Shown piece by piece: positions 15,866-50,500 of a DNA stretch of 64,000 nucleotides (position 1 is the first letter of the stretch; each line of letters begins with the position of its first letter). The DNA comes from Botryllus schlosseri. Its lineage: Eukaryota. The notes under the pieces are model-generated. The model ran no database searches. It saw only the letters and a program-made list of their open reading frames with translations, and was not told where the DNA came from. A program made the translations under genes and the position numbers. The DNA is taken from positions 8,372,001 to 8,436,000 of the forward strand of contig CM119372.1 in NCBI GenBank assembly GCA_051294905.1. The letters run 5' to 3'.

Positions 15866-15879
15866 GACTTGGTCACAAC

Positions 15880-16135
15880 CGTAGGTTGCTGGTTCGAGTT
15901 CGACAGAGGTCGACTCCAGAATAATTGCTTCTAAGTGTTGGAGGTTTATCTCGGCTCCTCCTCACCATGTCATCCACGTAAGCGGTGTCTTATAAAAAGT
16001 ATATAAGTGGGCCGTGCTGCAAGTCAGCAGCTATATGGAATGAAAGTTAAGAAAAACTGACCCGGTGTAAATTACCACTGTAGTCGACAAACACCATGAA
16101 CAACACAAACAACAACAACAACAACAACAACAACA
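15880..16135 (+). mobile_element. 5'-truncated tRNA-derived SINE with (CAA)n tail
   Basis: B box GGTTCGAGT, core GAGGTTTATCTCGGCTCCTC shared with two other SINEs, and a (CAA)n tail at ~16097-16135. Confidence 0.5.
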
Positions 16136-17439
16136 TATAACTCTTTGTTGAACAAATCAAAGAGAGAACCATACTGAAAATAGTTGTACAGTAGGGCTGT
16201 CCAAAAATACCATTTATTCAGATTCCAGCCATTCACTGATTAAATTGTCAGACTACCCTGAAAAGGTCGCACACCAAATTCGGCTCAATTTGAACAAGTA
16301 TATAAGCCTCCGCTGATCCAATTAAAATTTTTAATTCATTTGGGAATTTTTTTTTAATTTTTCTGTCCACCTCATGAAATTGTTGGGTTGTCTTCAAATA
16401 CGATGCAAGCTAAATTTGACTAAATTCCAACTAGTAGAGGTTGAGTTTCTTGTTGACAAATCTCGGATTACCCACCAATGTCCTATTCTTATGTGGCCAA
16501 ATTGTTTTTTTCGTTTTGCCCTTCAATTTGAGACCACGTCATTTTTAGAGAACAGTGCAGTAGTGAGGGTTGAATCGTTTGTTGCAGGCCCTCAGGCTAT
16601 TTAGAATGTAAACACTCTCATAATATACTTAACGTCGGACTATGGCCGGTCCATGCTTCCGAGAAATAAATAACATTCATTATACGTTAGATGATACTTT
16701 CCTTAGATAATATAGTATGTGTATTTAGGACTAATATTCTAATATGTGTATTTAGGACTAATGCGACTACTTCGAAAACGCGTACTGATCTGTTTTTGGG
16801 AATATGAATTCTCGCTTATTCTTATGTGAATTTAGAACTTTGTATTTTCGCGGATCAATAATTAATTAATGTTCATTTATAAACGCGTAACAGAAATCAA
16901 GCAAAAGTCGATATTACTGTGTAATGATTTTGATGTTGTTCCATACCGATTGGGAAGATAGCACACTCAATTTCGTAACCAACTACATAATCCCTAGTTA
17001 CGTAGTCAGACGCATAACGGCATTTACGCAAAATCGGTATTGCTTAGCGATAATTTTGATCACTATGTTTTATCGCTCGCCGCCAGACTATTGCCGTTTG
17101 TATTTATGAACAAATTTCGAAAACTATGATGTCTACGCAAGACTATATTCGCAAGATATTCTATTATGTGTATTTAGGACTGTGTATTTTCGCGGATAGT
17201 ATGAGCTCTCAGATAACACTCATCCACGTTGAACTATAGGCGTGGTTATTTGATGATGTATTAAAATTCTACGCACATTTCGCGCGATCAACATAATATT
17301 AATACCTAGTAACGATTCAACTTCATGACATTTTCAGTATTAAACAGAAATATAGACCTAGAATACTAACTTTTATTCATTAACGTAGTAAAACGCATAA
17401 CAGAATTCACGCAAAAGTCGATCGGTATTTGCAATAAAG

Positions 17440-17800
17440 CCTAAAAATTAGAGTCGCATCTTTTCGCAATTTATGCAGCTATTCGCGCAGACTTTGCCGC
17501 ATTTGCTGTATCTGAAGTAGAATTTCAGCGTCGTTATTCGCTATAAGCCGAGAAATGCACCTTCGCGCAATTTATATAGCCAAACGCATTAACTTTTCTG
17601 CATCTGAAGTAGAATTTCAGCGTCGTTATTTGTTATAAGCCGAGAAATGTACCTTCGCGCAATTTTTACAGGCAGTCTCACCCACTTTGCTGCGTCTGAA
17701 GTAGAATTTCAGCGTCGTTGTTTGCTATAAGCCGGGAAATTAGAGTCGCTGCTTCGCGCCATTTTACAGCCAGTCTCACACACTTTGCTGCATCTGAGCT
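17440..17800. repeat. ~92-98-bp tandem repeat, ~3.5 copies (mirror at ~28967-29327)
   Basis: Recurring TCTGAAGTAGAATTTCAGCGTCGTT...TATAAGCCG. Confidence 0.8.
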
Positions 17801-18874
17801 TCATACTAATATATGCATAATTTTTGCATGACGAGAATACGGGTAATACGGTCAATAAACGCCGGAGGCGAGTCATTTAAACCTTGTTGCTAGATAATAC
17901 CGCTTTCGGCTACAACAAAGTTGCCCTGCAACAAAAAATAGAAGCCCTAATGATCATGCAGAGGAAAGTTCAATTATACATCGGATTATTCGAATAGACT
18001 ATCTACATTGTATAGGTATGAAGTGAAATAGAACGGAGTTTACGCAAAAGTTGCTATTGATCATAGACCAAGCTTGCTTTCAGAGCTGGAAACTAAATGC
18101 ACATGAAAATTTAACTAGGTTTTCCCCACACGCATCAAATGTAGGCCTACTCAAGTGTTTATGAGATGGCGAATAGTTCGAAGGTTGTTGGCATGCAAGG
18201 ACGTCACATAGAATTGTGGAGTTTTCTGTAAACTATAATCCAGTGATCTATTTTCAATCACTATACTTTTAATAATCTAAAGTAAGTAGCCTACTTGAAT
18301 GTCATTAAAGAAAGCAGATTTGTATGAAAACTCGTTAAATAGAAGTAAAAGTAGCCTAGAAACATGACTACTTACTGAAAAATCGTTATGTAGAAGTGGG
18401 ATTAGTCTACGAACATAACCACTTACTTACTTTGAAATCTCTACTTGTACTTGTATTCATACTTTACCTTTACACGTCGTTTTTGTATAATGGATACTAA
18501 TTTTATTAAAAATTAAAAAGTGCGAAAAATTACATTTTATCCCGGAACGTAGCAGGAAAAATCGTATAAATTTTGTAAAGTAGATGGAAAACTACACTAT
18601 TCCGATGCAGTAAAGACTCTTACACTCTGGATTTTGTGCAGTATATACTAATTTTACATTGCGGAGTATTCCATAAACGTTAATCCAGTGATCCTCCTTC
18701 TATTTTCAATCACGATCCGCTTATTATTCTAGGCTTCGAACCCCACACCCAGTACGTTTTATGGGGATTAATATTTTTAGATTAAATATAGCGTATCGAG
18801 ACTTCGTGAAACTTACTTGGAAATAGTTATTTCTACCCTAATTTAATAGATTTCTCAGATATCGTAGCAACGGA

Positions 18875-18929
18875 ACTGGCTTGAGCGAGCGGTTAAGGCG
18901 TTGGACTTGAGTTTCAATGAACAAGTGTT
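18875..18929 (+). pseudogene. tRNA-Leu(TAA)-derived 5' fragment (mirror at 27838-27892)
   Basis: ACTGGCTTGAGCGAGCGGTTAAGGCGTTGGACTTGAGTTTCAATG resembles the 5' half of eukaryotic tRNA-Leu(UAA). The T arm is missing. Confidence 0.6.
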
Positions 18930-19092
18930 ATAAGTTACTCATGTTTACAACACAACCTAAACGCAAAGTGCACGAATTTCCATATTGATCAAATACCACA
19001 ATATTTGCTGGCTTTCAGAGTTAGTAACTAAGCGCGTAACAGAATTTACCTAAAAAAGTCAGTACTCCAAAATTTTTGTAAAGTATAGCTTT

Positions 19093-19151
19093 TTGGATTT
19101 AAGTTCCAATGAACAAGTGTTCACATATAGGTTCGAATCCCACACCCACTA
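19093..19151 (+). pseudogene. tRNA-Leu(TAA)-derived anticodon-to-3' fragment (mirror at 27616-27674)
   Basis: Anticodon arm TTGGA-TTTAAGT-TCCAA, long variable arm TGAACA-AG-TGTTCA, T loop GGTTCGAATCC. The 5' half is absent. Confidence 0.65.
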
Positions 19152-19611
19152 CGTTTTACGAGAATTAATATTTTTAGATTCAAATTTAGCGTATTGAGTA
19201 CTTTTTCTGCCTTTTTCAGCGCATTAGAGACGTTTACACTATGGATTTCGTGAGCTTTACTTGAGTTTTATAAATTAACGTAAAAGTAGTCATTTCCGAG
19301 TAAGTAAAACGTTCGTATTGTAGGTTCATTTCTGCTTAATACTATAATTACCATGGAGTTGAAGCAGTCCAATATCAAAAACACCCGAAAGTATTTGTTG
19401 CATATAGCTAAAAACCTAATTGAGTACTCTGAAGAAGTACAAGTTGCACAGTTTGTGGTATTTCTATGACATCGAAATTTAGCTGACCAGAACTTATACT
19501 TGAGTACTTCGAAATGTACAAGTACTTTACCTTCACACGACGTTTCTGTAAAATGAATACTGATTTTATTAAAATATAAAAAAGCACGAAAAATTACATT
19601 TTATCCCAAAC

Positions 19612-20675
19612 CATCATACGCATATCTGTTTTGCGTGAACATAGCATATACCTAAACATAGTCAATTTTGATAGCAGAATTGCCGTGTTAAACATTGAAT
19701 TCTCACCATGAAAGTCGGTACGCGGTTATAGGAGAGTATAACAATGCGCCATACCAAATCCCATCACACATTTCATGATGGAACAACTTTAAAACTAACG
19801 CGGCTCTACATCGACTTTTTGCGTACATCTGTTTTGTGGGAGCGCATAGCACGTACCCATACATAGCCAACTTTAATAACGGAATTACCATGCTTAACAT
19901 TGAATCCCAACTCGATACTTGATACGTAGTTGTAGGACATTATGGCAATGCACCATGCTGAATTTCATCACACATCTAATGATGGAACACCTCTGAAACT
20001 ATCGCAGTCGAATACCGACTTTTACGCATATCTGTTTTTCGTGAACATAGCATATACCCATACATAGTCAATTTTAATAGCAGAATTAGCATGCTAAACA
20101 TTAAATTCTCACCTTGAACGTTGGTACGCAGTTGTAGGACATAATAACAATGCATCATACCAAATTTCGTCAGACATTTCATGATGTAACACCTTTAAAA
20201 CCAACGCAGTTCTATACAAACTTTTGGCTAAATCTGTTTTTCCGTAGCGTAGCACGTACCTATACATAGTCAACTTCAATAACGGAATTAGCATGTTAAT
20301 AATCGACTCCCCACCGTGAAACTCGGTACGCAGTTGTAAGACATTATGACAATGCACCATTTCAAATTTTGTTACGCATTTCATGATTGAACAACTTTAA
20401 AACTAACGCAGTTCCATACCGACTTTAGCTAGAGCGTAGCACGTACCGATGCATACTCAACTTTAATAACGGAATTACCGAGCTAAACATTGAATGCGCA
20501 ACTTGAAGATTGGTTCACAGGTGTAGGACAGTATGATAATGGAACAGATCAAATTTCATCACACATTTCATGATGGAACAGCTTTAAAACTAACGCAGTT
20601 CTATACCAACTTCGCAGGAATCTGTTTGCGGGAGCGTAGCACGTACCTATGCGTGATCAACTTTAGTGATGGAAT
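19612..20675. repeat. ~202-bp tandem array, ~5 diverged units (mirror at ~26092-27155)
   Basis: CATGATGGAACAACTTTAAAACTAACGC-like motif recurs at ~19774, 19977, 20180, 20382 and 20569. Confidence 0.85.
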
Positions 20676-22479
20676 TACAGATGTAATTAAGTTTCAACAC
20701 TTTTACAACGATTCGTCTTGTTTCCTATAACATCCCACTCGATGCCCTCGTTATTAGGCTGTAATCTCAGCCTGAGCTATGTCTTGAAGCCTACGGGACT
20801 CTGCAAATTGTTTCGATTCATTCTCTCCGTTTCAATTCAAGATAAGGAAGCCCATTTCACTCAAAATATCGATGCCTACGGTACTCTACAAAATTTTCTG
20901 ATTAATTCTTCCTATGCTTATTTATCATAAGAAAGATGATTTGACACCTAAAGTACGAAATACTTGTTCGCTTGAGCTAAGCCGCAGCGCTCGGAGTGGA
21001 ATTTACTAACGCAGTCGATGGACATGATATTCTTCGATATGATCAACTGAAACCACGGATGTGGTGGGTTAGAGTCTTGTCGTGATGGTCCGTTTCGAAA
21101 TGCAAGCGGATGAACTAGACCAAAAGTTTCGAAGATGCGTTTTATAATTGCTCTAGGTGTGAAATAGACATCGCACTCTTGCGGGGAAACAACACGAATT
21201 CAGTCTTCACACCGCAGAAACACAGCCGCTTGGTTAACATCACAAAACCGCAATTGAACTCAAGATTGCCATACACGGAATCGCTGTTAACGATGTCTGA
21301 CTGCGGCGTTTCGACGAGTAACGAATTCTCGTATTTAGTATTGATTGTGACACATACTCAAAACAGCGACAGTTTTCACAACCCGGTACATACATTGAAC
21401 CAACTGATGTAAGGTGAAACACTACGTTCACACCAAAAAAAAGTTTGCAGGGTATGACCACCACCAACATATAGAGTAGTGAGTGAGTAATTAAACTACA
21501 TACCCCGATTTTACTATATTCCGAGATCCGGATCACGATTCAAGTCTACCTGAGAATCCGAACTACCCTGTGAAGTTGATATATCAAGTTGTGAACCGTG
21601 AAAGGGTTGTAATCTCGTTGAAATAGTATGCGACACATTTTTCCACAAGTCGAATGCATGTCGGTTCATACTAAGACCATGTTACGGTCAAATATGTGTG
21701 TTTTTCTGTCTCCAAGTCAGCTACCTCCACATTGAATGTACAGAGTCGGTGCATGTATGAGACTTCAGAACATGAATTTGTAATCCATGATGCTTGTAGT
21801 GCCGGCCATGATGTTATCCATGATGTATGTAATGTCACACACCTCCTTTACGCGAATACTTGTTATCTATGAACAATCGTGAAGTATACTGGATGTGTAA
21901 TGTCTTGTTATTTTCATGGAAACACGGGGGGTGTAACATGTTTGAATATTGTTCATTGGTTTGTCGATTCAGAGTTGATATCCGGATCCGGTTAATACTT
22001 TCTCGGGTTTCCGATTTCAAACTGAACGGTGGGATATGTATTGACCAATAAAGAGTGACACAATATAGTAAACATGTGTGAGAAAACTCACAAGTAACGC
22101 GGATTTGTTAGCGCGACGGGGACATAAATTCAACCATTATCCGTGTACCAAGCAGTTACCAAAGTCATGGAGGTTGCTAATTTCAACATATTGACTCTGT
22201 GGGAGGCTAAAGCACGAACCGGGACACACACAGACACACACACCAGGACACACAATATCCGTCGATTTCCAAAGCATACATTTCGATATACAAGAGCATA
22301 TTGTTATTTCATGTGGTTAACCGTTGATATAAATGCGATGCGATCGACGCGGGTATACTCTGAAACCGGTTGTCCGTTTATATGAGAAAAGATGCTGTGA
22401 AGGACTTTAAAAAGCGGCAATTGAGCATAGTTGTGTCGAGTTACCGAATGATTTTTTCCTTACATCAAAACAACTAGAA

Positions 22480-22580
22480 TGTATAAGCATAAAAAACATT
22501 CCCGCGCGCGCGTCTTAGGATTAGGTGGTAGGGTTAGGCAGGGTTTAGGAGCGCGCGGGAATGTTTTTTATGCTTATACA
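22480..22580. repeat. Perfect 30-bp hairpin with telomere-like loop
   Basis: TGTATAAGCATAAAAAACATTCCCGCGCGC (22480-22509) and its exact reverse complement (22551-22580) flank a TTAGG-rich loop. Confidence 0.9.
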
Positions 22581-23214
22581 ACTCAATGAATACCCATCGG
22601 CCTGCTTACTACATTTTAAATATTCTCTCCGCTATTGTGTACACAAGAATATACTTTTCTTAGTAACCAATTTCTCGTGAATTCCGAAACACATTGACGT
22701 GTGTTAACTTCTGGTATTACGTGATAATATCATTTTCATGTCTGATAATGTCACTTGTCAAGGTGATATAAACGTAAGCTCAAACTACTTTGACATACAC
22801 AGTCCTAAAAGTAGGTAGTTCCACCTGAAAAACCTCTTGAGTAGAGGGTAAGTTATCTACGGAAATAACCATCTATATTAGTTACTTTTAGATCCCTAAT
22901 TGTACTTTTGCGCAATATTTGAGTTTTAGGAAGTACCCTTCAAAGTGAGCCTACATCTTGGATATTATCCAAAACCACATAAATTTCGCTTCGAACGAGG
23001 TATCCTTTAAAATAAGGTAGAAGTAGTCATTTCCGAGTAAGTAAAACGTTAGTACTCTAGGTCCATTTCTGTTCAATACTCTAGCTATCATGAAGTTGAT
23101 GTACTCCAATATCATAAGGACTTGAGAGTATTTGGTGCATGTAGGCAAAAAACCTACTTGGGTATTCTCACAAAGTGCGAGTACTATACTTAACAATTCT
23201 GAAAGTTAGCGCAG

Positions 23215-24250
23215 TGGTATGTTCCATTGTCATAATGTCCTACACCTGTGAACCGATCTTCAAGTTGCGCATTCAATGTTAAGCTCGGTAATTCCGTTAT
23301 TAAAGTTGAGTATGCATAGGTACGTGCTACGCTCCGCAAAAGTCGGCATGGAACTGGATTAGTTTTAAAGTTGTTCAATCATGAAATGCGTAACAAAATT
23401 TGACATGGTGCATTGTCATAATGTCTTACAACGGTGTAGCGAGTTTCAAGGTTGGGAGTCGATTATTAACATGGTAATTCCGTTATTAAAGTTGACTATG
23501 CATAGGTACGTGCTACGCTACGGAAAAACAGACTTAGCCAAAAGTCTGTATAGAACTGCGTTGGTTTTAAAGGTGTTACATCATGAAATGTGTGACGAAA
23601 TTTGGTATGGTTCATTCTTATTATGTCCTACAACTGCGTACCAACGTTCAAGGTGAGAATTTGATGTTTAGCATACTAATTCTGTTATTAAAATTGACTA
23701 TGTATGGGTATATGCTGTGTTCACGAAAAGCAGATATGCGTAAAAGACGGTATTCGACTGCGATAGTTTCAAAGGTGTTCCATCATTAGATGTGTGATGA
23801 TGAAATCTAGCATGGTGCATTGCCATAATGTCCTACAACTACGTATCAAGTTTAGAGTTGGGATTCAATGTTAAGCATGGTAATTCCGTTATTAAAGTTG
23901 GCTATGTATGGGTACGTACTATACGCCCCCACAAAACAGATGTACGCAAAATGTCGATGTAGAGCCGCGTTAGTTTTAAAGTTGTTCCAATATGAAATGC
24001 GTGAGGAAATTTCGTATGCTGCATAATCACAATGTCCTACAACTACGTACCAAGTTTCAAGGTGAGGATTCACATATTAGCATGGTAATTCTGGTATTAA
24101 AGCTGACTATGTATATGTACATGTACTGTACACGCTAGCGAAACAGATGTAGGCAAAAGTTGCTATAGAACTGCGTTAGTTTTAAAGTTATTCCATCATA
24201 AAATGTAAATGTGTGATGCAATTTGGTATGCTGCATAATCACAATGCCCT
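23215..24250. repeat. Third, diverged copy of the ~202-bp array in the spacer of A
   Basis: Direct paralogue of ~26217-27000 (offset ~3002). ORF-track entries 23381 and 26383 are similar but differ at several residues. Confidence 0.85.
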
Positions 24251-24284
24251 GGAGCTCATTTAGATACGTGTTTAATGTAGTTAC

Positions 24285-27200
24285 ACATTCTAGTTGTTTT
24301 GATGTAAGGAAAAAATCATTCGGTAACTCGACACAACTATGCTCAATTGCCGCTTTTTAAAGTCCTTCACAGCATCTTTTCTCATATAAACGGACAACCG
24401 GTTTCAGAGTATACCCGCGTCGATCGCATCGCATTTATATCAACGGTTAACCACATGAAATAACAATATGCTCTTGTATATCGAAATGTATGCTTTGGAA
24501 ATCGACGGATATTGTGTGTCCTGGTGTGTGTGTCTGTGTGTGTCCCGGTTCGTGCTTTAGCCTCCCACAGAGTCAATATGTTGAAATTAGCAACCTCCAT
24601 GACTTTGGTAACTGCTTGGTACACGGATAATGGTTGAATTTATGTCCCCGTCGCGCTAACAAATCCGGGTTACTTGTGAGTTTTCTCACACATGTTTACT
24701 ATATTGTGTCACTCTTTATTGGTCAATACATATCCCACCGTTCAGTTTGAAATCGGAAACCCGAGAAAGTATTAAACGGATCCGGATATCAACTCTGAAT
24801 CGACAAACCAATGAACAATATTCAAACATGTTACATCCCCCGTGTTTCCATGAAAATAACAAGACATTACACATCCAGTATACTTCACGATTGTTCATAG
24901 ATACCAAGTATTCGCGTAAAGGAGGTGTGTGACATTACATACATCATGGATAACATCATGGCCGGCACTACAAGCATCATGGATTACAAATTCATGTTCT
25001 GAAGTCTCATACATGCACCGACTCTGTACATTCAATGTGGAGGTAGCTGACTTGGAGACAGAAAAACACACATATTTGACCGTAACATGGTCTTAGTATG
25101 AACCGACATGCATTCGACTTGTGGAAAAATGTGTCGCATACTATTTCAACGAGATTACAACCCTTTCACGGTTCACAACTTGATATATCAACTTCACAGG
25201 GTAGTTCGGATTCTCAGGTAGACTTGAATCGTGATCCGGATCTCGGAATATAGTAAAATCGGGGTATGTAGTTTAATTACTCACTCACTACTCTATATGT
25301 TGGTGGTGGTCATACCCTGCAAACTTTTTTTTGGTGTGAACGTAGTGTTTCACCTTACATCAGTTGGTTCAATGTATGTACCGGGTTGTGAAAACTGTCG
25401 CTGTTTTGAGTATGTGTCACAATCAATACTAAATACGAGAATTCGTTACTCGTCGAAACGCCGCAGTCAGACATCGTTAACAGCGATTCCGTGTATGGCA
25501 ATCTTGAGTTCAATTGCGGTTTTGTGATGTTAACCAAGCGGCTGTGTTTCTGCGGTGTGAAGACTGAATTCGTGTTGTTTCCCCGCAAGAGTGCGATGTC
25601 TATTTCACACCTAGAGCAATTATAAAACGCATATTCGAAACTTTTGGTCTAGTTCATCCGCTTGCATTTCGAAACGGACCATCACGACAAGACTCTAACC
25701 CACCACATCCGTGGTTTCAGTTGATCATATCGAAGAATATCATGTCCATCGACTGCGTTAGTAAATTCCACTCCGAGCGCTGCGGCTTAGCTCAAGCGAA
25801 CAAGTATTTCGTACTTTAGGTGTCAAATCATCTTTCTTATGATAAATAAGCATAGGAAGAATTAATCAGAAAATTTTGTAGAGTACCGTAGGCATCGATA
25901 TTTTGAGTGAAATGGGCTTCCTTATCTTGAATTGAAACGGAGAGAATAAATCGAAACAATTTGCAGAGTCCCGTAGGCTTCAAGACATAGCTCAGGCTGA
26001 GATTACAGCCTAATAACGAGGGCATCGAGTGGGATGTTATAGGAAACAAGACGAATCGTTGTAAAAGTGTTGAAACTTAATTACATCTGTAATTCCATCA
26101 CTAAAGTTGATCACGCATAGGTACGTGCTACGCTCCCGCAAACAGATTCCTGCGAAGTTGGTATAGAACTGCGTTAGTTTTAAAGGTGTTCCATCATGAA
26201 ATGTGTGATGAAATTTGATATGTTCCATTATCATACTGTCCTACACCTGTGAACCAATCTTCAAGTTGCGCATTCAATGTTTAGCTCGGTAATTCCGTTA
26301 TTAAAGTTGAGTATGCATCGGTACGTACTACGCTCCAGCTAAAGTCGGTATGGAACTGTGTTAGTTTTAAAGTTGTTCAATCATGAAATGCGTAACAAAA
26401 TTTGAAATGGTGCATTGTCATAATGTCTTACAACTGCGTACCGAGTTTCACGGTGGGGAGTCGATTATTAACATGCTAATTCCGTTATTGAAGTTGACTA
26501 TGTATAGGTACGTGCTACGCTACGGAAAAACAGATTTAGCCAAAAGTTTGTATAGAACTGCGTTGGTTTTAAAGGTGTTACATCATGAAATGTCTGACGA
26601 AATTTGGTATGATGTATTGTTATTATGTCCTACAACTGCGTACCAACGTTCAAGGTGAGAATTTAATGTTTAGCATGCTAATTCTGCTATTAAAATTGAC
26701 TATGTATGGGTATATGCTATGTTCACGAAAAACAGATATGCGTAAAAGTCGGTGTTCGACTGCGATAGTTTCAGAGGTGTTCCATCATTAGATGTGTGAT
26801 GAAATTCAGCATGGTGCATTGCCATAATGTCCTACAACTACGTATCAAGTATCGAGTTGGGATTCAATGTTAAGCATGGTAATTCCGTTATTAAAGTTGG
26901 CTATGTATGGGTACGTGCTATGCGCTCCCACAAAACAGATGTACGCAAAAAGTCGATGTAGAGCCGCGTTAGTTTTAAAGTTGTTCCATCATGAAATGTG
27001 TGATGGGATTTGGTATGGCGCATTGTTATACTCTCCTATAACCGCGTACCGACTTTCATGGTGAGAATTCAATGTTTAACACGGCAATTCTGCTATCAAA
27101 ATTGACTATGTTTAGGTATATGCTATGTTCACGCAAAACAGATATGCGTATGATGGTTTGGGATAAAATGTAATTTTTCGTGCTTTTTTATTTTTTAATA

Positions 27201-30200
27201 AAATCAGTATTCATTTTACAGAAACGTCGTGTGAAGGTAAAGTACTTGTACATTTCGAAGTACTCAAGTATAAGTTCTGGTCAGCTAAATTTCGATGTCA
27301 TAGAAATACCACAAACTGTGCAACTTGTACTTCTTCAGAGTACTCAATTAGGTTTTTAGCTATATGCAACAAATACTTTCGGGTGTTTTTGATATTGGAC
27401 TGCTTCAACTCCATGGTAATTATAGTATTAAGCAGAAATGAACCTACAATACGAACGTTTTACTTACTCGGAAATGACTACTTTTACGTTAATTTATAAA
27501 ACTCAAGTAAAGCTCACGAAATCCATAGTGTAAACGTCTCTAATGCGCTGAAAAAGGCAGAAAAAGTACTCAATACGCTAAATTTGAATCTAAAAATATT
27601 AATTCTCGTAAAACGTAGTGGGTGTGGGATTCGAACCTATATGTGAACACTTGTTCATTGGAACTTAAATCCAAAAAGCTATACTTTACAAAAATTTTGG
27701 AGTACTGACTTTTTTAGGTAAATTCTGTTACGCGCTTAGTTACTAACTCTGAAAGCCAGCAAATATTGTGGTATTTGATCAATATGGAAATTCGTGCACT
27801 TTGCGTTTAGGTTGTGTTGTAAACATGAGTAACTTATAACACTTGTTCATTGAAACTCAAGTCCAACGCCTTAACCGCTCGCTCAAGCCAGTTCCGTTGC
27901 TACGATATCTGAGAAATCTATTAAATTAGGGTAGAAATAACTATTTCCAAGTAAGTTTCACGAAGTCTCGATACGCTATATTTAATCTAAAAATATTAAT
28001 CCCCATAAAACGTACTGGGTGTGGGGTTCGAAGCCTAGAATAATAAGCGGATCGTGATTGAAAATAGAAGGAGGATCACTGGATTAACGTTTATGGAATA
28101 CTCCGCAATGTAAAATTAGTATATACTGCACAAAATCCAGAGTGTAAGAGTCTTTACTGCATCGGAATAGTGTAGTTTTCCATCTACTTTACAAAATTTA
28201 TACGATTTTTCCTGCTACGTTCCGGGATAAAATGTAATTTTTCGCACTTTTTAATTTTTAATAAAATTAGTATCCATTATACAAAAACGACGTGTAAAGG
28301 TAAAGTATGAATACAAGTACAAGTAGAGATTTCAAAGTAAGTAAGTGGTTATGTTCGTAGACTAACCCCACTTCTACGTAACGATTTTTCAGTAAGTAGT
28401 CATGTTTCTAGGCTACTTTTACTTCTATTTAACGAGTTTTCATACAAATCTGCTTTCTTTAATGACATTCAAGTAGGCTACTTACTTTAGATTATTAAAA
28501 GTATAGTGATTGAAAATAGATCACTGGATTATAGTTTACAGAAAACTCCACAATTCTATGTGACGTCCTTGCATGCCAACAACCTTCGAACTATTCGCCA
28601 TCTCATAAACACTTGAGTAGGCCTACATTTGATGCGTGTGGGGAAAACCTAGTTAAATTTTCATGTGCATTTAGTTTCCAGCTCTGAAAGCAAGCTTGGT
28701 CTATGATCAATAGCAACTTTTGCGTAAACTCCGTTCTATTTCACTTCATACCTATACAATGTAGATAGTCTATTCGAATAATCCGATGTATAATTGAACT
28801 TTCCTCTGCATGATCATTAGGGCTTCTATTTTTTGTTGCAGGGCAACTTTGTTGTAGCCGAAAGCGGTATTATCTAGCAACAAGGTTTAAATGACTCGCC
28901 TCCGGCGTTTATTGACCGTATTACCCGTATTCTCGTCATGCAAAAATTATGCATATATTAGTATGAAGCTCAGATGCAGCAAAGTGTGTGAGACTGGCTG
29001 TAAAATGGCGCGAAGCAGCGACTCTAATTTCCCGGCTTATAGCAAACAACGACGCTGAAATTCTACTTCAGACGCAGCAAAGTGGGTGAGACTGCCTGTA
29101 AAAATTGCGCGAAGGTACATTTCTCGGCTTATAACAAATAACGACGCTGAAATTCTACTTCAGATGCAGAAAAGTTAATGCGTTTGGCTATATAAATTGC
29201 GCGAAGGTGCATTTCTCGGCTTATAGCGAATAACGACGCTGAAATTCTACTTCAGATACAGCAAATGCGGCAAAGTCTGCGCGAATAGCTGCATAAATTG
29301 CGAAAAGATGCGACTCTAATTTTTAGGCTTTATTGCAAATACCGATCGACTTTTGCGTGAATTCTGTTATGCGTTTTACTACGTTAATGAATAAAAGTTA
29401 GTATTCTAGGTCTATATTTCTGTTTAATACTGAAAATGTCATGAAGTTGAATCGTTACTAGGTATTAATATTATGTTGATCGCGCGAAATGTGCGTAGAA
29501 TTTTAATACATCATCAAATAACCACGCCTATAGTTCAACGTGGATGAGTGTTATCTGAGAGCTCATACTATCCGCGAAAATACACAGTCCTAAATACACA
29601 TAATAGAATATCTTGCGAATATAGTCTTGCGTAGACATCATAGTTTTCGAAATTTGTTCATAAATACAAACGGCAATAGTCTGGCGGCGAGCGATAAAAC
29701 ATAGTGATCAAAATTATCGCTAAGCAATACCGATTTTGCGTAAATGCCGTTATGCGTCTGACTACGTAACTAGGGATTATGTAGTTGGTTACGAAATTGA
29801 GTGTGCTATCTTCCCAATCGGTATGGAACAACATCAAAATCATTACACAGTAATATCGACTTTTGCTTGATTTCTGTTACGCGTTTATAAATGAACATTA
29901 ATTAATTATTGATCCGCGAAAATACAAAGTTCTAAATTCACATAAGAATAAGCGAGAATTCATATTCCCAAAAACAGATCAGTACGCGTTTTCGAAGTAG
30001 TCGCATTAGTCCTAAATACACATATTAGAATATTAGTCCTAAATACACATACTATATTATCTAAGGAAAGTATCATCTAACGTATAATGAATGTTATTTA
30101 TTTCTCGGAAGCATGGACCGGCCATAGTCCGACGTTAAGTATATTATGAGAGTGTTTACATTCTAAATAGCCTGAGGGCCTGCAACAAACGATTCAACCC

Positions 30201-30208
30201 TCACTACT
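24285..30208 (-). repeat. Right inverted arm of element A
   Basis: Reverse complement of 16559-22482. Confidence 0.95.
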
Positions 30209-30888
30209 CAGTGCCCCTTCATTGTTCATTATGTTGAGGCGTGACACGTTCTATGGCAATGGTTCTTGCCGTGGGCACTATACCGTCCCCGTGGGTGATT
30301 ATGACACTGACGTAGGGGAAATACTTCGGGACGCACGGTCAGCATATATCAGTTTGTAGATTTTGACAGCCCACGACAGCGTATTTATGGCTGCTTTTCG
30401 CAACTATACTTACTTACTCACTTACTTAAGTAGCGAGTAAATTCTAATTGTACTTGAAGTAGCTTTGAACCGCTTCTAAAAGCATTGCTTCTGCTCGTAT
30501 TTGAGTAGAATTTTACGTCGCTCCATCTACCTTTATCTGAGTAGCTTTTTTGATTAATTTGACCACCTCTGCATGCATGACCAGAGCATGTTTTACGATT
30601 ACTCTTAGATCAAATCAAATATCTTTGAGCATTAAGTAAATTATCGTGGCACCGTCCCGCAACTGCATTCTCACAACTCCAGTAAGAATGAGTCTTCCTC
30701 GTGATTTGTTGACCAATAACCATGACTCCGCCTGGGGAATATAAATAATTGTGCGCTTGATACAACACCCTTCCAGCGATATATTCCTTGTATATTGGTA
30801 GTTGAATGCGGAATAAATCTATACCGAATCATGATAAATATTCAGAGACATACCTAATATATATACATATTGAGCGCAGCGATTGCAG

Positions 30889-39850: not shown

Positions 39851-40079
39851 ATAATAAAGTTCGTAGGCCTACATCAAGGGTCGCCAACTCAATACGGCTC
39901 GCTGGCCACTTTTCAAATTTCGTAGCGGCCGCGGGCCGCATGAATGCCATATCGATATAAACTAGGCAACCACGTTTTAAAACTCTACGTCAGTACAACG
40001 CCGTGCTACCTAACATAGGCAATGGGCATAGTAACCACAAGAGAAAAAATATTATAGTAGTTATATAGATCGGTCGTGA

Positions 40080-40565
40080 GGTGGCAGGGGCTCTTATGGG
40101 CGCGGTGGCACGGTGCCGCGAAAACTCGTGGTGGCACGGTGACCCTTATGTCTTATGGCTGCGGCGGCACGGTGCCATTGTGTCTTATGGTTGTGGTGGC
40201 ATGGTTACCTTTTCGGGTATAGGCTGCGGTGGCACGGTGACCCTTATCTCTTATGGGTGCGGTCGCACATCGTATGGAAAACTCGTGGTGGCACATCGTA
40301 CTTTTGGACCCCCCCCCTCTCGGTCGCACATCGTAATGCGTTCTTATGGGTGCGCTCGCATATCGTACTTTCAGGTATACGCATCTGTCGCATATCGTAT
40401 TGAAAACTCGTGTTGGCACATCGTACTTTTAGGTATAGGCATCTGTCGCACGTCGTACTTTCGCATGTCGTATTTCGCGTATAGGCGGTGGTGGTGACTC
40501 GCCATGTGTTCTTATGGGTGCGGCCGTGAATCGCCCTTTCGTGTATAGCCATCTGTCGCACGGTG
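40080..40565. repeat. GC-rich subterminal repeats of B (mirror at ~53593-54079)
   Basis: Recurring TCTTATGG, GGTGGCACGGTG and GCACATCGTACTTT units. Confidence 0.8.
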
Positions 40566-40879
40566 TTGAATATGTATCAGATAAATAGTCATGTGAATGT
40601 ACCTTTGTTAATGTGTATATCGTAAATTATTATATATGATGTAGCTCAGTCGTGACAAATGACCGATCGTGTTCTAAGTCTTTCCTCGCTATTGATCGCT
40701 AGCTGAATAGTACTTTCAGATCGGATTATTCGCACCTTGTATACCGCTGTTTCGCACCTACAGAATAGTCTGCTGTTGACAGTCGTGACTTCACCGCGAT
40801 AGCGCAATTTTCGAATCAGTCGCATGGTAATGTTTTGCTATTTAGTTTACCACAGAGCCGGTGTAGACGACGACGATTC

Positions 40880-41470
40880 GAATACCAACAATAGCCGCGT
40901 TCACATACTAACACTCCAAAAAGGTGTGAAATATTTCCTACGACCACTCACAAGATAGCACATCAGAATAGTCATCTCTCGTGGTTTGATGTTACAAAGA
41001 TAGGGATCACGCACAAGTAATATTTTGGTAATAAGTTTGTCACATAACCGGCGCTTCCAATACCAACAATAGCCGCGTTCACATATTAACACTCCAAATA
41101 GGTGTGAAATAGTTTGCAAACCAGGCGATCGCTGACAAGATAATGTCTCAGACATACGCGACTTGATGTTACAGGCATATCGATCGCTCACGCGGTGAAA
41201 TTTTCGTAAGCAGTTTGTCACAGAACTCGTAAAGATTTAATAAGTAACGAATAACAGACCCCCAGTGTCGGTAACTTGAATAGCGACAAATTGTCACTTA
41301 TTTCTACTCTAACCCTAATCCTTTGTGAAGTGTACGCTTATTCAAAAAGGTGCGAAATAATTCTAAAATCCTACGATCGCTCACAAGATAACACCTATAA
41401 GACATAACCATCTCTCGTGACTTGTGGTTACATACATTGCAATCGCTACAATGTAATATGTTGGTAGTTT
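40880..41470. repeat. ~178-bp tandem repeat, ~3 diverged units (mirror at ~52688-53278)
   Basis: AATACCAACAATAGCCGCGTTCACATA.TAACACTCCAAA.AGGTGTGAAATA at 40881 and 41059, partial at ~41340. Confidence 0.75.
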
Positions 41471-44400
41471 GGTGCAGAACTGGATTTCACGAGTCTGATA
41501 TAATATGAATATTACCTATTAAGTAATAAGCACCGAATAACAGAACCGTCGCAGACGGTGACTTGAATATCCAAGATTTGATACTTTTCGCGATCGCTAT
41601 ATGTTTCACGTTCACTTTAGTTGTATGACAAGAATCATGCGAATATTCAAGCAATGTATCAATTTGACAACTTGAAATGAAACTTACTACACAGCTCAAG
41701 TTGATTCGTATCTGAATGTGTTAATCCGGTACAATTCTAATTAATTTGAGAAATCTTTTTAACGTGATCTTTTGATTCGATCGTAACCTGAATATTACTG
41801 ACGCCGACTTTCAGTCACATTGAATTATTCACACATTCGCGCCGCTGTTTTCACGCCTATAGAATCAATACCAACTATAACTCTACAAGAATCAAGAATC
41901 ACAAGTATGTGCATTATACAGTTATTGTCGTTGTCAACTTCAAATCAAACTCTTGATACAAACACGCATCTTATCACTTGTCAACTCTATCATGAAAATC
42001 CTCGAACCTGTATTATTAAGAATGTTATAGTACGGCGTCGGAATCCACTCGCGAGATGTACTAAAGGTAAATTGAGATCACCCAAAATGAAATATTTGGA
42101 CTTTGACATAGTCTGAATTGCAATAGATTGACAAACATGACTACCAACTTTCAACCCATACATATTTAGAGATTATGCGCATGTTGATTTGAAACAAGTA
42201 ATGACCATACAACTCTATTCACGACTGAGTTTTCCGTTTGTCAAATAGAGTTTCAGTAAATAATTTCACTATACTATCATGATATTCAAATGTGTTACCA
42301 CACACAATACAATCAATCAATGAAATAGCACCTGTTGTAAATATTTCTTACTTGACAACCACTTGTACATACCGCGATCGAGTTGCGACACGATGAGTTA
42401 AATCGGAATATTTCCATCTATTTGTCGAAACCTTGTACAAGCTATCTGGTTATTTTTTCGTTGCAATTGAGTTAACGGAAATAGTATTACGTCTCGACAT
42501 CTTACCATCTTACCATACTCCAAAAAGCCACCAAGGAAAAACCTAGTCAAGTAAATCGTTTGTAACTCACCCAATCAACTCAAACAGTATCAGTATGAAA
42601 ACAGTCAAGCATACACGAGTCCATACAATCGCCACAATCTAAAATCCATAGCAAGTTCGGTTTTAGGCATATACCGTCAACTCGTCTTTTTTGTTCAACT
42701 GTAAAAGTCGTTACTATTCTGCGAGACAAAGAAATTACTATGCGGTATATTTTGTAAGATAAAAGTAATTACTTCTCGGTGCCGGCGACTTGAGATTAAC
42801 ATAATATGTTTGAGTATGCGAGATTTGAAAGTCTGCCCAACATGTTGAGAATTCATTTCTTACAATCGAACGCAGGTGTTATATTGAAAATTATCATGAT
42901 GTAAACATAAGGATTGACACATTGATTTGACGTATGTAATAGTTGATCACGACTTGATTATTAAATTATTCGCGTTAATTAGACCCGCGTTGTGTTGAAA
43001 GTTATGACAGCAACAAACTTTTCGGAAACATTGTTATTAACATATTGATTTGTAAAACTATACTTGTCTGAAATGTTCTTGATTTGGAAGATATTCCGTG
43101 TCGGTACAAATCACTCTGCGTATTGCGGATATCAGCAAATATTTTACAAATGTAATTGTTTCCAGTACCCAAGACTAAAGATGAAACAACAATTTAGTTT
43201 GCTGATAAACAACCGGTACAATACTTTATCATCATATTCCGCGGTGAGAATTGAAACACTTTCGCGCATTACACGATGTCAAGATATCACACTAGGTGAA
43301 TTGGCATACCGCCGCTTGAATAATACCTAATCCGTTCGCACCATTTCACATACTTTGATCATTACAAAAGTAAATTGTGATATGTTTGTTAGATGCATCC
43401 AATTCAGTTAGAAATGTCTGGTGCACAACAATCGTAATATCAAAAAAGTACTTGCTACACTGTTATTTGCTAAACGTGTTTTGCATTGTTGTTCATTTGT
43501 AGTATTGATTGAAATTGTTCTTGAACCCTCAAATAATAATTCCTGACATGAAACCAAGCCGCTGAAAGTCGTTACCATCACGAAGATACAATGTGTACGA
43601 TGTTTGTCAAATGAGTCCTACCTGGCCAACAGAAAACAATTTTCACTCACTCGAAATGAAACCAATGTGATGGTCTCCAAACGATATTTTGTTTGTGTCA
43701 AATACTTTGCAATGAACACATTTGTGTGGTTGAGCTTTACATCATCAAGCTGTTATTTGTAAATCAAGATTTCGGTAAACTTGTAAATGTATCGTTTAAC
43801 TAACCGACATTTAGTGATTGGGGAACATACCAGACGATACACACCCGTCTCCGAAATACTGCATTGATCTTAATTTCCATCATCGTGATAATCGAAGTAC
43901 ATTTCTTTCGAATTCGTAACAACCGACTATGACATGATAAATTTTTGACAAGTTATGCTTGGAAGATTGGTTGCATATCGCGAAAAAAAAATAATATACC
44001 ACTCATATTGATACTGTTACTCCATTGATCGATATTTTCAAACGAGTAAAATTTATTACTTGAGTGTCCCCGCTTAATGTAAATGAAAACTCAGCCGTCT
44101 TTTAACATCACAAAGACATTGATAAAAAGTAGGCAATCAAACACAACACTTTGTACGACACTAATTATTGTTCCACACATCTCATTTCATACTAAATGTA
44201 TACGAAAGATATTCATGACACATGAAAATATTCCCATGCTACAAACCTGTACAATGATCGGTGGTGCTTTCAAACTGTTTCGATATCACAAGAACTTTAT
44301 TGTCTGAATGGGTGTTCATGTATCTTAATAATCAAATAGTTCAACACAGAACTAGTACGAACAGAAACATCAGAGTTGTTTACACAAAAGTTTGTATGTG

Positions 44401-45389
44401 CACAGTATGCGAATACCATGTGTAAGTCCAGCACAATTGCGGTATCCATCCGAGTTTAGTTAACGCAAATTTATTACAACAAGCCACGTAAACTTTCGTG
44501 AAAGAAAAGCATACTCACTTCCAGAGGGTTATGTCAACGCCATAGCAGTAAATCAGCTACTCCAACAAGAAAGTACATATGTTTTCTAGTCACGGTCCTT
44601 ACATCTTTCACATAGATCAATCTACTTTGCTAACGAAAAGTGCTGAGTCATCACATGATTGCCCTCACAACAAAACAGCTAGAAGATATTATCATACAAA
44701 AATATTCCTAACCCTTTGCGCACCAGTGACAAATCATACAACAAACATTTTTTGTGAGTCGAATTGTTGTTCAGTGTCAAGTCTACCTGTTGAAACGTAC
44801 ATTAAAACAACACAGTCACAATTCAATTAAAACCACGAATCTATTTTCATTTCGTCACATACAGAAAAATAAATTTTCTTTCCCCAACACATACTTGTAA
44901 CCAATCGCTTTCATTAAACACACAACTCCATAAAAGTATGTAATTTCTACAACATAGACATTCCGACGTAGTCAAGAAATATTTTTATTAATCAAAATCA
45001 TCGACTTCTGTTTACGGTGTTAGTGTGTGCATGTCATACACGTGGGGCCCGTATTAAAATGGACACGACACAACTGAATGTAAGGAGATAGAAGTCTATC
45101 GCATAGATTTACATGTGGTCTTCGCTACGGTTTCAAAAAAAAAAAACGAATCATCTCTTTTGCATTGATCTAGACCGAGCAAGTTAGTTAATGACCATGA
45201 TTGTGTTTGTCATATGCGAATGATAGGGTTACTGTCAAATCTACATACAACAACCTTCAGGCACTCTTAATAGCGATTTCATTCTCTCCCTTCGTAGTCA
45301 TATACCCCCAACTCGGCTTTTTTGTTCATCGACAGCTGCGTTTAACAAGACCAACGACACTGAACCCACGACGTTTACCTATGTAAAAT

Positions 45390-45900
45390 TACCACTTTCA
45401 CTTGGCAGTCCGTCGTTTACCTGGATAAACATATCATTTTCACTTGGAAATATATTTTTTCCTTGGCTAACAAACCTTTTTTCACTTGGAAATCTATTTT
45501 TTCCTTGGCTAACAAACCTTTTTTCACTTGTAAATATGTTTTTTCCTTGGCTAACAAACCTTTTTTCACTTGGAAATCTATTTTTTCTCTGGTTAACAAA
45601 CCTTTTTCCCCGGGTAACAAACCTTTTTCCCTGAGCAACAAGCCATTTTCACTTGGTGGTCCGTCGTTTACCTGAGTAAAAATATCATTTTCCTTTGGGG
45701 ATCTGGCGTTTACCCGGTGTAACAATACATTTTCGCTTGGAAAAATACTTTTACCTAGAGTAACTAATCATTTTCTCCTGGGTAACAATCCCTTTTCGTC
45801 TGGAAACTATCATCTAACTGAGTACCAATACCGTTTTCACTTGGAAATACATTTTTTCCCTGGGTAACAATACCATTTTCGTTTTGAAAACTGACAACCA
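45390..45900. repeat. 21/42-bp minisatellite (mirror at ~48258-48768)
   Basis: The 42-bp unit TTTTTTCACTTGGAAATCTATTTTTTCCTTGGCTAACAAACC repeats about 4 times, with degenerate 21-bp units around it. Confidence 0.85.
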
Positions 45901-47551
45901 CACCGGTCAATTTGATATTTTTGTATATTGTTACAACGAACAGTGACGGAAATATACACAGACTACCGGTTTCAGAGTACACCCCATCGGTCGTATCACG
46001 TCAATATCATCGGTTAACCACATACAATATACTCTTGTACACCGAAATGCACGCTTTGGAAAATTGGACAATAGGCTGCGATAGTTCTGTGATGTCCGGG
46101 TTCGTGCTTTAGATTTTCCAGAGTCAAAATGTCTGAATAAAACACCTCCTCGACGACGGTTGGTATGTGGATAACGGTGTTCGGAAAACGGTTGGATTTT
46201 TGTCGCCCATCGCGATAACAATTCCTGGTCGAGTTTTCCTCCGGCATGTTTGCTATATTGTGTCTTTATTGGTCAATGTATGTCTCGACATTCAGTTTGA
46301 AATCGGAAATGATAAAGTATGTAACCGGATCCGGATATCAACTCTGAATCGATAAACCAATGAACAATATTCAAAGTAAACATGTTACACCCTGTGTTTC
46401 CACGAAAAAATACCATCCAGACATACGTCGCGCTTGTTTGCCCACATCAGTATACGCGTAAATGGAGGTGTGTGACATTGCATGCAATGTGTTGGTATAC
46501 AAACATCGATCCACAGACATTATCATAACCGGTAGTTTTGATGTAGATCGAATGTCACCTGATAACAATGTCATACCAATAAGCCACATTGCAATGACTT
46601 TGAGTCAATCTGAAGCATGACATACAGACACACAAACATAGAAACCGTAACATGGGTATTCGCACGACTACCTTTGACAGGGAAAGTGAACTGTACAGTA
46701 CATACCAATATTGTGATCACAGTCAAATATGCGAACCGTGCACAATCATATACCCAGGTTTTTGTTGGATATGTACGAAACCGATAAATCGATACATTTC
46801 TTTTCCCTGGACATCAATAATACAATCGCCATTCAAATACATCACTCGAATGTGAGGTTCGTCTGGTGTAAAATCCATATCAAATAACACCAAAGTGTGC
46901 CTTCCGTGTTTTATCATTTCCACCGACGCTTCTTGTCTGTGTCGTAACACTATGGTGTGGGGACTTGAAAAACGACAGATTGTAAAACGGATTGACATGA
47001 CCAACTGAATCGATGTCAATAGCCTTGTGGTGATGACAGTATCAAAATGCTACCGATATGACGAGACCAACCCGATCTCTTGTAGCGATGACCGTTTCGA
47101 AATGTCACCGAACGAAATGGACCCTTACGATGATGTATTTTATGATTGTGTGTGAAATAACGAGGCAGTGTTTGTTCTATTGTGGTGTACGATTGCAGTC
47201 TTCATTCCACAGAAACACACCTTATTGGATCACAGTATCAGTCCGAGATTTGCAGAATCACTGTTCACGATATTTATCTGGAGTCGTTATGTGGGAGTAG
47301 CGACGTCCATACATCGTGACTGAAAGACTGATTGCAATCATTTCGAGCACCCGTGATTCGATAGTTCACCTTGGTCAAACGCTGCAGCAGAAACCTTCGG
47401 TGTCGACATCACGCTGGATATTGCCCGATGTATCCAATTGGTCTGGGTGGTCTGTCTGGAGATAGGGTCATGACTATCTTGTAATGTTACAACGCGATAA
47501 AACCATCGACTAAATCAGTGAACGATGTCGAAATATCGATGTAATAGCGCG

Positions 47552-50500
47552 GACTCAGAGTCATTGCAATGTGGCTTATTGGTATGACATTGTTATCAGG
47601 TGACATTCGATCTACATCAAAACTACCGGTTATGATAATGTCTGTGGATCGATGTTTGTATACCAACACATTGCATGCAATGTCACACACCTCCATTTAC
47701 GCGTATACTGATGTGGGCAAACAAGCGCGACGTATGTCTGGATGGTATTTTTTCGTGGAAACACAGGGTGTAACATGTTTACTTTGAATATTGTTCATTG
47801 GTTTATCGATTCAGAGTTGATATCCGGATCCGGTTACATACTTTATCATTTCCGATTTCAAACTGAATGTCGAGACATACATTGACCAATAAAGACACAA
47901 TATAGCAAACATGCCGGAGGAAAACTCGACCAGGAATTGTTATCGCGATGGGCGACAAAAATCCAACCGTTTTCCGAACACCGTTATCCACATACCAACC
48001 GTCGTCGAGGAGGTGTTTTATTCAGACATTTTGACTCTGGAAAATCTAAAGCACGAACCCGGACATCACAGAACTATCGCAGCCTATTGTCCAATTTTCC
48101 AAAGCGTGCATTTCGGTGTACAAGAGTATATTGTATGTGGTTAACCGATGATATTGACGTGATACGACCGATGGGGTGTACTCTGAAACCGGTAGTCTGT
48201 GTATATTTCCGTCACTGTTCGTTGTAACAATATACAAAAATATCAAATTGACCGGTGTGGTTGTCAGTTTTCAAAACGAAAATGGTATTGTTACCCAGGG
48301 AAAAAATGTATTTCCAAGTGAAAACGGTATTGGTACTCAGTTAGATGATAGTTTCCAGACGAAAAGGGATTGTTACCCAGGAGAAAATGATTAGTTACTC
48401 TAGGTAAAAGTATTTTTCCAAGCGAAAATGTATTGTTACACCGGGTAAACGCCAGATCCCCAAAGGAAAATGATATTTTTACTCAGGTAAACGACGGACC
48501 ACCAAGTGAAAATGGCTTGTTGCTCAGGGAAAAAGGTTTGTTACCCGGGGAAAAAGGTTTGTTAACCAGAGAAAAAATAGATTTCCAAGTGAAAAAAGGT
48601 TTGTTAGCCAAGGAAAAAACATATTTACAAGTGAAAAAAGGTTTGTTAGCCAAGGAAAAAATAGATTTCCAAGTGAAAAAAGGTTTGTTAGCCAAGGAAA
48701 AAATATATTTCCAAGTGAAAATGATATGTTTATCCAGGTAAACGACGGACTGCCAAGTGAAAGTGGTAATTTTACATAGGTAAACGTCGTGGGTTCAGTG
48801 TCGTTGGTCTTGTTAAACGCAGCTGTCGATGAACAAAAAAGCCGAGTTGGGGGTATATGACTACGAAGGGAGAGAATGAAATCGCTATTAAGAGTGCCTG
48901 AAGGTTGTTGTATGTAGATTTGACAGTAACCCTATCATTCGCATATGACAAACACAATCATGGTCATTAACTAACTTGCTCGGTCTAGATCAATGCAAAA
49001 GAGATGATTCGTTTTTTTTTTTTGAAACCGTAGCGAAGACCACATGTAAATCTATGCGATAGACTTCTATCTCCTTACATTCAGTTGTGTCGTGTCCATT
49101 TTAATACGGGCCCCACGTGTATGACATGCACACACTAACACCGTAAACAGAAGTCGATGATTTTGATTAATAAAAATATTTCTTGACTACGTCGGAATGT
49201 CTATGTTGTAGAAATTACATACTTTTATGGAGTTGTGTGTTTAATGAAAGCGATTGGTTACAAGTATGTGTTGGGGAAAGAAAATTTATTTTTCTGTATG
49301 TGACGAAATGAAAATAGATTCGTGGTTTTAATTGAATTGTGACTGTGTTGTTTTAATGTACGTTTCAACAGGTAGACTTGACACTGAACAACAATTCGAC
49401 TCACAAAAAATGTTTGTTGTATGATTTGTCACTGGTGCGCAAAGGGTTAGGAATATTTTTGTATGATAATATCTTCTAGCTGTTTTGTTGTGAGGGCAAT
49501 CATGTGATGACTCAGCACTTTTCGTTAGCAAAGTAGATTGATCTATGTGAAAGATGTAAGGACCGTGACTAGAAAACATATGTACTTTCTTGTTGGAGTA
49601 GCTGATTTACTGCTATGGCGTTGACATAACCCTCTGGAAGTGAGTATGCTTTTCTTTCACGAAAGTTTACGTGGCTTGTTGTAATAAATTTGCGTTAACT
49701 AAACTCGGATGGATACCGCAATTGTGCTGGACTTACACATGGTATTCGCATACTGTGCACATACAAACTTTTGTGTAAACAACTCTGATGTTTCTGTTCG
49801 TACTAGTTCTGTGTTGAACTATTTGATTATTAAGATACATGAACACCCATTCAGACAATAAAGTTCTTGTGATATCGAAACAGTTTGAAAGCACCACCGA
49901 TCATTGTACAGGTTTGTAGCATGGGAATATTTTCATGTGTCATGAATATCTTTCGTATACATTTAGTATGAAATGAGATGTGTGGAACAATAATTAGTGT
50001 CGTACAAAGTGTTGTGTTTGATTGCCTACTTTTTATCAATGTCTTTGTGATGTTAAAAGACGGCTGAGTTTTCATTTACATTAAGCGGGGACACTCAAGT
50101 AATAAATTTTACTCGTTTGAAAATATCGATCAATGGAGTAACAGTATCAATATGAGTGGTATATTATTTTTTTTTCGCGATATGCAACCAATCTTCCAAG
50201 CATAACTTGTCAAAAATTTATCATGTCATAGTCGGTTGTTACGAATTCGAAAGAAATGTACTTCGATTATCACGATGATGGAAATTAAGATCAATGCAGT
50301 ATTTCGGAGATGGGTGTGTATCGTCTGGTATGTTCCCCAATCACTAAATGTCGGTTAGTTAAACGATACATTTACAAGTTTACCGAAATCTTGATTTACA
50401 AATAACAGCTTGATGATGTAAAGCTCAACCACACAAATGTGTTCATTGCAAAGTATTTGACACAAACAAAATATCGTTTGGAGACCATCACATTGGTTTC

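Follow-up and report, generated by a model that had tools for sequence, protein, structure and literature searches.

How could a palindrome of more than 13 kb, without genes, enter a chromosome as one unit, and how could its two halves have stayed nearly identical? The question is raised by element A, which lies in a 64,000-nt stretch of Botryllus schlosseri contig CM119372.1 (hereafter the window, i.e., the whole stretch of DNA analysed; positions are counted from its first letter). We consider it probable that A belongs to a family of many copies, as a palindromic member that has Maverick-type ends and no genes and likely uses the enzymes of a helper Maverick. Its limits, insertion footprint and arms are:

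16559..30208, no strand assigned: element A, 13,650 nt, beginning with AGTAGT and finishing with ACTACT
16553..16558, plus strand: target-site duplication, left copy, CAGTGC
30209..30214, plus strand: target-site duplication, right copy, CAGTGC
16559..22486, plus strand: left arm of A, 5,928 nt
24281..30208, minus strand: right arm of A, an inverted copy of the left arm

An earlier note on this DNA had placed the AGTAGT/ACTACT termini and a perfect CAGTGC duplication exactly where we found them. Outside the 6-bp duplication the two flanks of A were unrelated to each other, the chance expectation for a matching 6 bp at both flanks being 3e-4, and in the 64-kb window AGTAGT...ACTACT pairs with a 6-bp duplication were found only at A and at a second element, B. 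For vertebrate Mavericks, PMC8097293 gives 5′-(AGT)2//(ACT)2-3′ as the commonest end, beside (AG)3//(CT)3 as another end motif, 6-bp duplications, a length of 12.7-24.6 kb (12,723-24,620) and terminal repeats of 46-1,447 bp. With its 13,650 nt, A fits the end motif, the duplication and the length range, whereas its 5,928-nt inverted repeats lie outside the range of 46-1,447 bp and are about fourfold too long. Repeats of 100-1,500 bp are given for nematode Polintons (10.1101/2023.08.22.554363), and repeats of about 2 kb for butterfly polintons, which, however, hold core genes (10.1101/2025.02.07.637071). The Maverick-type ends and the 6-bp duplication agree with the view of the earlier note that A was inserted as a unit, and, judged from ends and footprint, the insertion was very likely made by a Maverick integrase.

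The arms themselves are rich in internal repeats, which make up 2,402 of the 5,928 nt; two of these are tandem arrays:

17502..17797, plus strand: 92-nt tandem repeat, 3.2 copies (mirror at 28970-29265)
19617..20680, plus strand: array of about 5 tandem units of about 202 nt, alike to about 74% (mirror at 26087-27150)

Such modular arms with tandem and dispersed repeats would also be expected if A were a foldback element mobilised by some other superfamily of transposases, whether FB/Mutator-like or a further group with 6-bp duplications, and its AGTAGT ends were a coincidence. Drosophila FB resembles A in its long, modular, repeat-rich inverted arms, its tandem repeats and its little or no coding sequence, but it has other ends, and FB/Mutator duplications are 9-11 bp, against 6 bp in A. 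Since A and B both show the published Maverick motif together with 6-bp duplications, we regard an origin from another superfamily as very unlikely.

As in other non-autonomous Mavericks, the ends and the footprint of A are of Maverick type and genes for mobility are lacking. Its longest stop-free frame was 110 codons. A Pfam scan covered 47 of the 48 frames of 45 or more codons in one arm plus the centre (the remaining frame, mostly in the flank, was left out); the curated cut-off was reached by 0 of the 47, with 7 sub-threshold matches. Genes for pPolB, integrase, ATPase, protease, major or minor capsid protein and SF1 helicase were all missing among the scanned frames, the same scan gave no SSB gene in the arms, and neither Rfam families nor tRNAs were detected in A. 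The statements that A has no open reading frame for an integrase, pPolB, ATPase or capsid protein and that it depends on outside enzymes thus held, as no coding capacity was found. Genes for pPolB and a retrovirus-like integrase belong to the definition of a Polinton (PMC5499653); A is without both, and so is not an autonomous Polinton. In RNA run X24 (about 6% read), depth was 0-3 reads on both strands, nearly all partial, and the flanking gene was equally low.

Compared with known systems, A is like the autonomous Mavericks (PMC8097293) in end motif, 6-bp duplication, length and inverted ends, and unlike them in having 5.9-kb arms and no pPolB, integrase, ATPase, protease or capsid genes. 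Maverick-type ends with an incomplete gene set are also present in the truncated Polinton remnants and repeat-only pieces of C. elegans (PMC11414722), and without the full gene set in cargo-bearing, polB-less polinton variants (10.1101/2025.02.07.637071); in the accessible text of these sources, none of these derivatives is described as a near-total palindrome that forms a family of many copies and has a small gene of its own. Likewise, a palindromic non-autonomous Maverick class did not appear in the accessible part of a review (PMC6431247). No description of palindromic non-autonomous Mavericks was found in the literature searched, most subscription papers being outside it, and the founding Polinton paper or Repbase may have them. 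Non-autonomous Polinton entries are present in Repbase.

Outside the Mavericks, the snapback subgenomes of adeno-associated virus (AAV; PMC8235507) are, like A, self-complementary with viral ends and, as is likely for A, helper-dependent, but are described as short-lived, colinear with the parent genome and not integrated lineages. Transpovirons (PMC5499653), which are Polinton-related, share with A the form of a linear satellite with inverted ends and no capsid genes, but are about 7 kb long, carry an SF1 helicase, ride on mimiviruses and are not palindromic. A resembles both in its likely dependence and is a member of neither. Among protein-primed replicons, a hairpin plasmid of yeast pGKL1 was reportedly described by Kikuchi in 1985, and palindromic minigenomes of phi29 and panhandle repair in adenovirus are known. 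In these derivatives, as proposed for A, strand displacement favours fold-back molecules that keep the origin; they differ from A in being extrachromosomal or in vitro, with no integrase footprint.

Near-identical arms of about 5.9 kb had been said to make up 87% of A, and the alignment bore this out (5,928 nt, ungapped, 17 differences). The remaining 1.8-kb centre was not a plain loop, but consisted of a hairpin and an insert:

22480..22580, no strand assigned: apex hairpin, with a perfect 30-bp stem, an alternating CG end and TTAGG-type loop motifs (z -8.05)
22581..24280, no strand assigned: 1.7-kb insert in the right arm directly past the apex, high-copy sequence

The hairpin, with its 30-bp stem, sits exactly at the end of the left arm and is probably the true apex of the palindrome. 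A 7-nt near-duplication with one change (22574-22580 and 24281-24287) bounds the insert, such that the 7-mer closes the right stem of the hairpin and recurs where the right arm restarts (24281). From the hairpin at the arm end and the recurring 7-mer, A is best read as an almost complete palindrome of about 11.9 kb, the right arm of which bears a 1.7-kb insert past the apex; this reading replaced a former one with the axis near 21884. The self-complementarity of the whole molecule, in the arms (87%) and the apex hairpin, is that expected of a copy-back or snapback genome, in which both ends derive from one terminus. About three quarters of the insert (1,267 nt) resemble arm sequence, and at 23220-24135 the 202-nt array recurs within it in inverted orientation, at 91%.

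The 17 differences between the arms (99.7% identity) were unevenly placed. There were none in the first 1.8 kb, and they increased towards the centre: with the site inside the 7-nt duplication excluded, the outer half held only 2 of 16 (p=0.004), and with it included 2 of 17 (p=0.002; Kolmogorov-Smirnov p=0.005). Variant rows for the sequencing runs over A (40 listed of 628) included 21 in the arm. At 18 of these 21 listed sites the two arms of A carry the identical letter, and at 6 of the 18 A's letter amounts to <1% of depth in both run X1 and run X5; at site 16628 the remainder in X1 was 22.6, roughly what a single locus would give. Where the arms differ, at 3 of the listed sites, it is the right arm that has the family letter. 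Since letters rare in the family are present in both arms of A, one arm has been copied onto the other, and these shared rare letters, together with the outward-in gradient, are as predicted for snap-back replication.

In the standing model of Polinton replication, a single-stranded, racket-like intermediate is copied by the protein-primed pPolB (PMC4196379, 10.64898/2026.07.28.741278). For A, the strand displaced during copying from a terminus would snap back into a 6-kb hairpin; the hairpin would restore a double-stranded origin at once, probably giving A an edge over the helper; and one arm would be copied on the other by repair or resynthesis that starts at the open end and works best near the ends. 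Whether snap-back copying with open-end repair is what keeps the arms alike seems to us evenly balanced. A simpler course would be that A is a cut-and-paste foldback element that borrows only the integrase of a Maverick, its arms equalised by chromosomal gene conversion with no extrachromosomal hairpin. This takes fewer steps, explains the ends, the duplication and the shared rare letters equally well, and is favoured by the many internal rearrangements in the family; but it offers no reason for a non-coding palindrome of 13-14 kb as opposed to short forms like miniature inverted-repeat transposable elements (MITEs), nor does it directly explain the outward-in gradient, and we consider it improbable.

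Returning to a palindromic family that is probably served by a helper Maverick, a second member is available in element B, and the features by which the two elements can be compared are:

40056..54103, no strand assigned: element B, 14,048 nt, with AGTAGT/ACTACT ends, arms of about 6,550 nt and a 945-nt loop
40050-40055 and 54104-54109: target-site duplication of B, TATTAT
46723..46998, minus strand: loop gene of B, 91 amino acids, intact frame of a novel family
21824..22383, plus strand: conserved core in A, 560 nt (mirror at 24384-24943)
45952..46486, minus strand: conserved core in the left arm of B (mirror at 47672-48206 on the plus strand)
21017..21325, minus strand: loop-gene remnant in A, its upstream part homologous to the loop of B at 47078-47304 (mirror at 25442-25750 on the plus strand)

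The arms of B, which have 4 differences (99.9% identity), are unrelated to those of A except for the ends and one core. The core is 73% identical between A and B and is taken as non-coding because its indels break the codon phase. Coding in the core was considered and rejected: the frames shift and contain stops, and a match to Fe_hyd_SSU (E 6e-5, below the cut-off) was taken as chance. A structured RNA was not indicated either, folding of the core being no better than that of shuffles (z -0.06) and Rfam giving none. The core is likely a cis signal, either the promoter of the loop gene or a packaging/replication signal. Its best conserved part (21950-22060) includes some short palindromes and two boxes resembling CCAAT, one on each strand; that these boxes act as a promoter is a guess. 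It was also noticed that the arms of B contain a 46-nt stretch (44663-44708) with 80% similarity to the outer stem at the apex of A, followed by a TAACCC motif; this is possibly the kind of site where A's apex folded back.

The loop frame of B is a real gene, as it is conserved among relatives: nine were found, on short contigs, with 90-98 residues and 45-85% identity. A first structural model was poor (predicted local distance difference test, pLDDT, 44), and a second gave a nine-strand, all-beta fold with pLDDT 80 (2 of 5 models). Fold searches with the latter returned weak beta-sandwich matches, the best having Z 5.2 and a root-mean-square deviation of 3.4 over 61 residues to alpha-crystallin domains, with Foldseek E 0.036 and an Atlas template-modelling score of 0.57 to AMIN, below the bar. 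Pfam had no family for this protein, and the PDB no sequence match below E 0.7. A TPR-like protein, P0003 (28%), was dropped as a chance relative. Loci of the loop protein were confirmed in 0 of 250 metagenome and 0 of 31 viral pattern matches, and no longer or fused form was seen among 6,672 candidates, which is weak evidence.

A retains a trace of this gene. Short blocks at 21075-21325 match the loop of B, and the minus strand of A at 21046-21017 reads LIISKNIMSI, the first ten positions of the relative P0005, in which the start codon called is presumably TTG. This leader match has a chance expectation of 1e-6 in the window and was found twice, once per arm. The ATG of the remnant is at 21025; beyond the third codon the sequence of A is unrelated to the gene, so that A retains the leader plus the first three codons of the 91-amino-acid gene, and no copy of the loop protein was found in A. 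In A the ATG and the core are 799 nt apart, in B 674 nt. Across its axis B has a core, the gene, the leader and a second core in turn, and in A each arm holds the leader and one core, the core facing inward. In an X5 contig (depth about 895), 19865 is linked to 21017 with a change of strand; because this joint lies exactly at the end of A's remnant, it suggests a recurrent module boundary.

These arrangements point to a possible course of descent. In a B-like ancestor with core, gene, leader and core, a deletion would have taken away one of the two cores together with all of the gene past codon three; the element would have refolded about a hairpin on the far side of the core that was left, which would have become the new apex; and beside this apex, in A or its subfamily, 1.7 kb of arm sequence of the family would have been inserted. 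We lean towards this derivation of A's subfamily by deletion, refolding and insertion.

The comparison with B also bears on the proposal of the earlier note that A is a copy-back defective genome of a helper. Its shape and ends and its insertion as a unit stand; the absence of any core-gene trace, the unrelated arms of A and B and the family's own 91-amino-acid gene weaken it. In its strict form, A would be a recent copy-back genome, each arm being the terminal 6 kb of the helper folded back. Snapback genomes are known for AAV (PMC8235507), and the refolding step proposed above for A would itself be a fold-back. However, 6 kb of a Maverick end should reach genes, and no core-gene remnant was found; the arms of A and B are unrelated; and the divergence of the family's own gene to 45% identity at constant length indicates long separate evolution. 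All this is more in keeping with an old satellite lineage that evolved separately than with a helper end that folded back recently; the latter we hold to be unlikely.

That A is one of many copies was indicated by public sequencing runs, 20 listed runs from 12 studies containing part of the window; four runs were aligned to 11200-24500. Contig depth in the flank was 13-18 in X1 (likely the source sample of this assembly, as it mostly showed no differences), about 64 in X5 and about 3.5 in X6, and, relative to the flank, single contigs inside A were 34, 35, 84 and 266 times as deep in X5 and 17-25 times as deep in X6. Given two arms per element and a depth that is no copy number, the family is read as having tens to hundreds of copies. 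The claim of many copies was thus supported by the 17-266-fold depth, a rough measure, and by B with its own duplication; dispersal of A's own subfamily was not directly seen. The centre of A was as deep as its arms, and joints in the contigs revealed internal variants; one of these joints, between 21927 and 23218, had a depth in X5 about 29 times that of the flank. In X5, A's letter was absent at 10 of the 21 listed arm sites, a hint that A's copy is absent from X5, although contigs cannot prove absence.

Palindromes are a recognised class of artefact, and no listed contig spans the junctions of A, both of which would suit a fold-back chimera of assembly or library preparation. Against an artefact of this kind, both elements have flanks that are asymmetric and carry a direct 6-bp duplication, the arms of A differ at 17 positions, its centre is structured and of high copy number, and the family is present in 20 listed runs from 12 studies; we find an artefact scarcely credible.

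We keep to the reading of A as a gene-less member of a helper-dependent palindromic family, which is likely integrated by the helper's integrase and likely copied by its protein-primed polymerase. Several points weigh against it. The helper Maverick, none of which was seen, and snap-back copying, of which no replication intermediate was observed, are both inferred. The evidence for arm likeness was drawn from 40 listed of 628 variant rows, the 4 arm differences of B are too few for a gradient test, and chromosomal gene conversion would likewise equalise the arms. The ends of A and B do not align beyond six letters. Summed contig depth is not copy number, the ratios differing about tenfold between X5 and X6, and no listed contig crosses a flank-element junction or an empty site. 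Finally, a 26-mer from the core had 0 exact matches in viral contigs and metagenome contigs, and a terminal 19-mer of A had 0 in viral contigs.

Other features of the window were observed beside the two elements. Intronless, paralogous frames of about 1,210-1,230 amino acids with 83% DNA identity are located at 11327-14968 and 55270-58968, A lying 1.6 kb behind the first and B about 1.2 kb ahead of the second. Each contains a DUF294 nucleotidyltransferase domain together with DUF294_C, a combination of bacterial type found here in an animal, and both are near single-copy depth in three runs; the window has a CpG observed/expected ratio of 1.0-1.3, i.e., no CpG depletion, and the host looks animal. 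In the left flank of A, a very high-copy interspersed repeat (15463-15880; summed depth about 1e6 in X5, against 64) drew the largest number of RNA reads along the stretch, on both strands. A 286-nt AT-rich palindrome (1858-2143), 91% self-complementary, is MITE-like with no clear duplication at the limits examined, and 62711-63841 is a telomere-like interstitial element, in which a mixed TTAGG/TTAGGG array (63037-63389) lies between inverted 16-nt repeat blocks.

What A and B may mean for the biology of Mavericks can be stated in several respects. Replication of Mavericks/Polintons is known almost solely by inference, the racket intermediate being a model, and a many-copy, recently active palindromic family leads to predictions that can be counted: arm correction fading towards the apex, a size window and free hairpin DNA. 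The parts shared by A and B (six terminal bases, the 560-nt core and the gene leader) narrow down the cis signals that a helper would have to read, and both elements are near 13-14 kb, which may hint at packaging with at best a loose limit. Hundreds of 6-kb inverted repeats should affect genome stability, assembly and annotation, and searches for Mavericks based on genes overlook such elements. More speculatively, and less probably than not, these elements could form a hitherto undescribed class of integrated satellites of endogenous DNA viruses, descended from an old lineage and not from the debris of a helper, in which the palindrome would be a replication strategy, the size would be kept near the capsid limit of the helper, a movable fold-back axis would gain and shed modules, and gene-bearing members would supply the 91-amino-acid beta-sandwich protein that gene-less, A-like members borrow. 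If this is true, the family would preserve in the genome a trace of the single-stranded intermediate of Polintons, which has never been observed, the palindrome would give instant origin regeneration and self-repair, and the A-like members would be parasites of a satellite.

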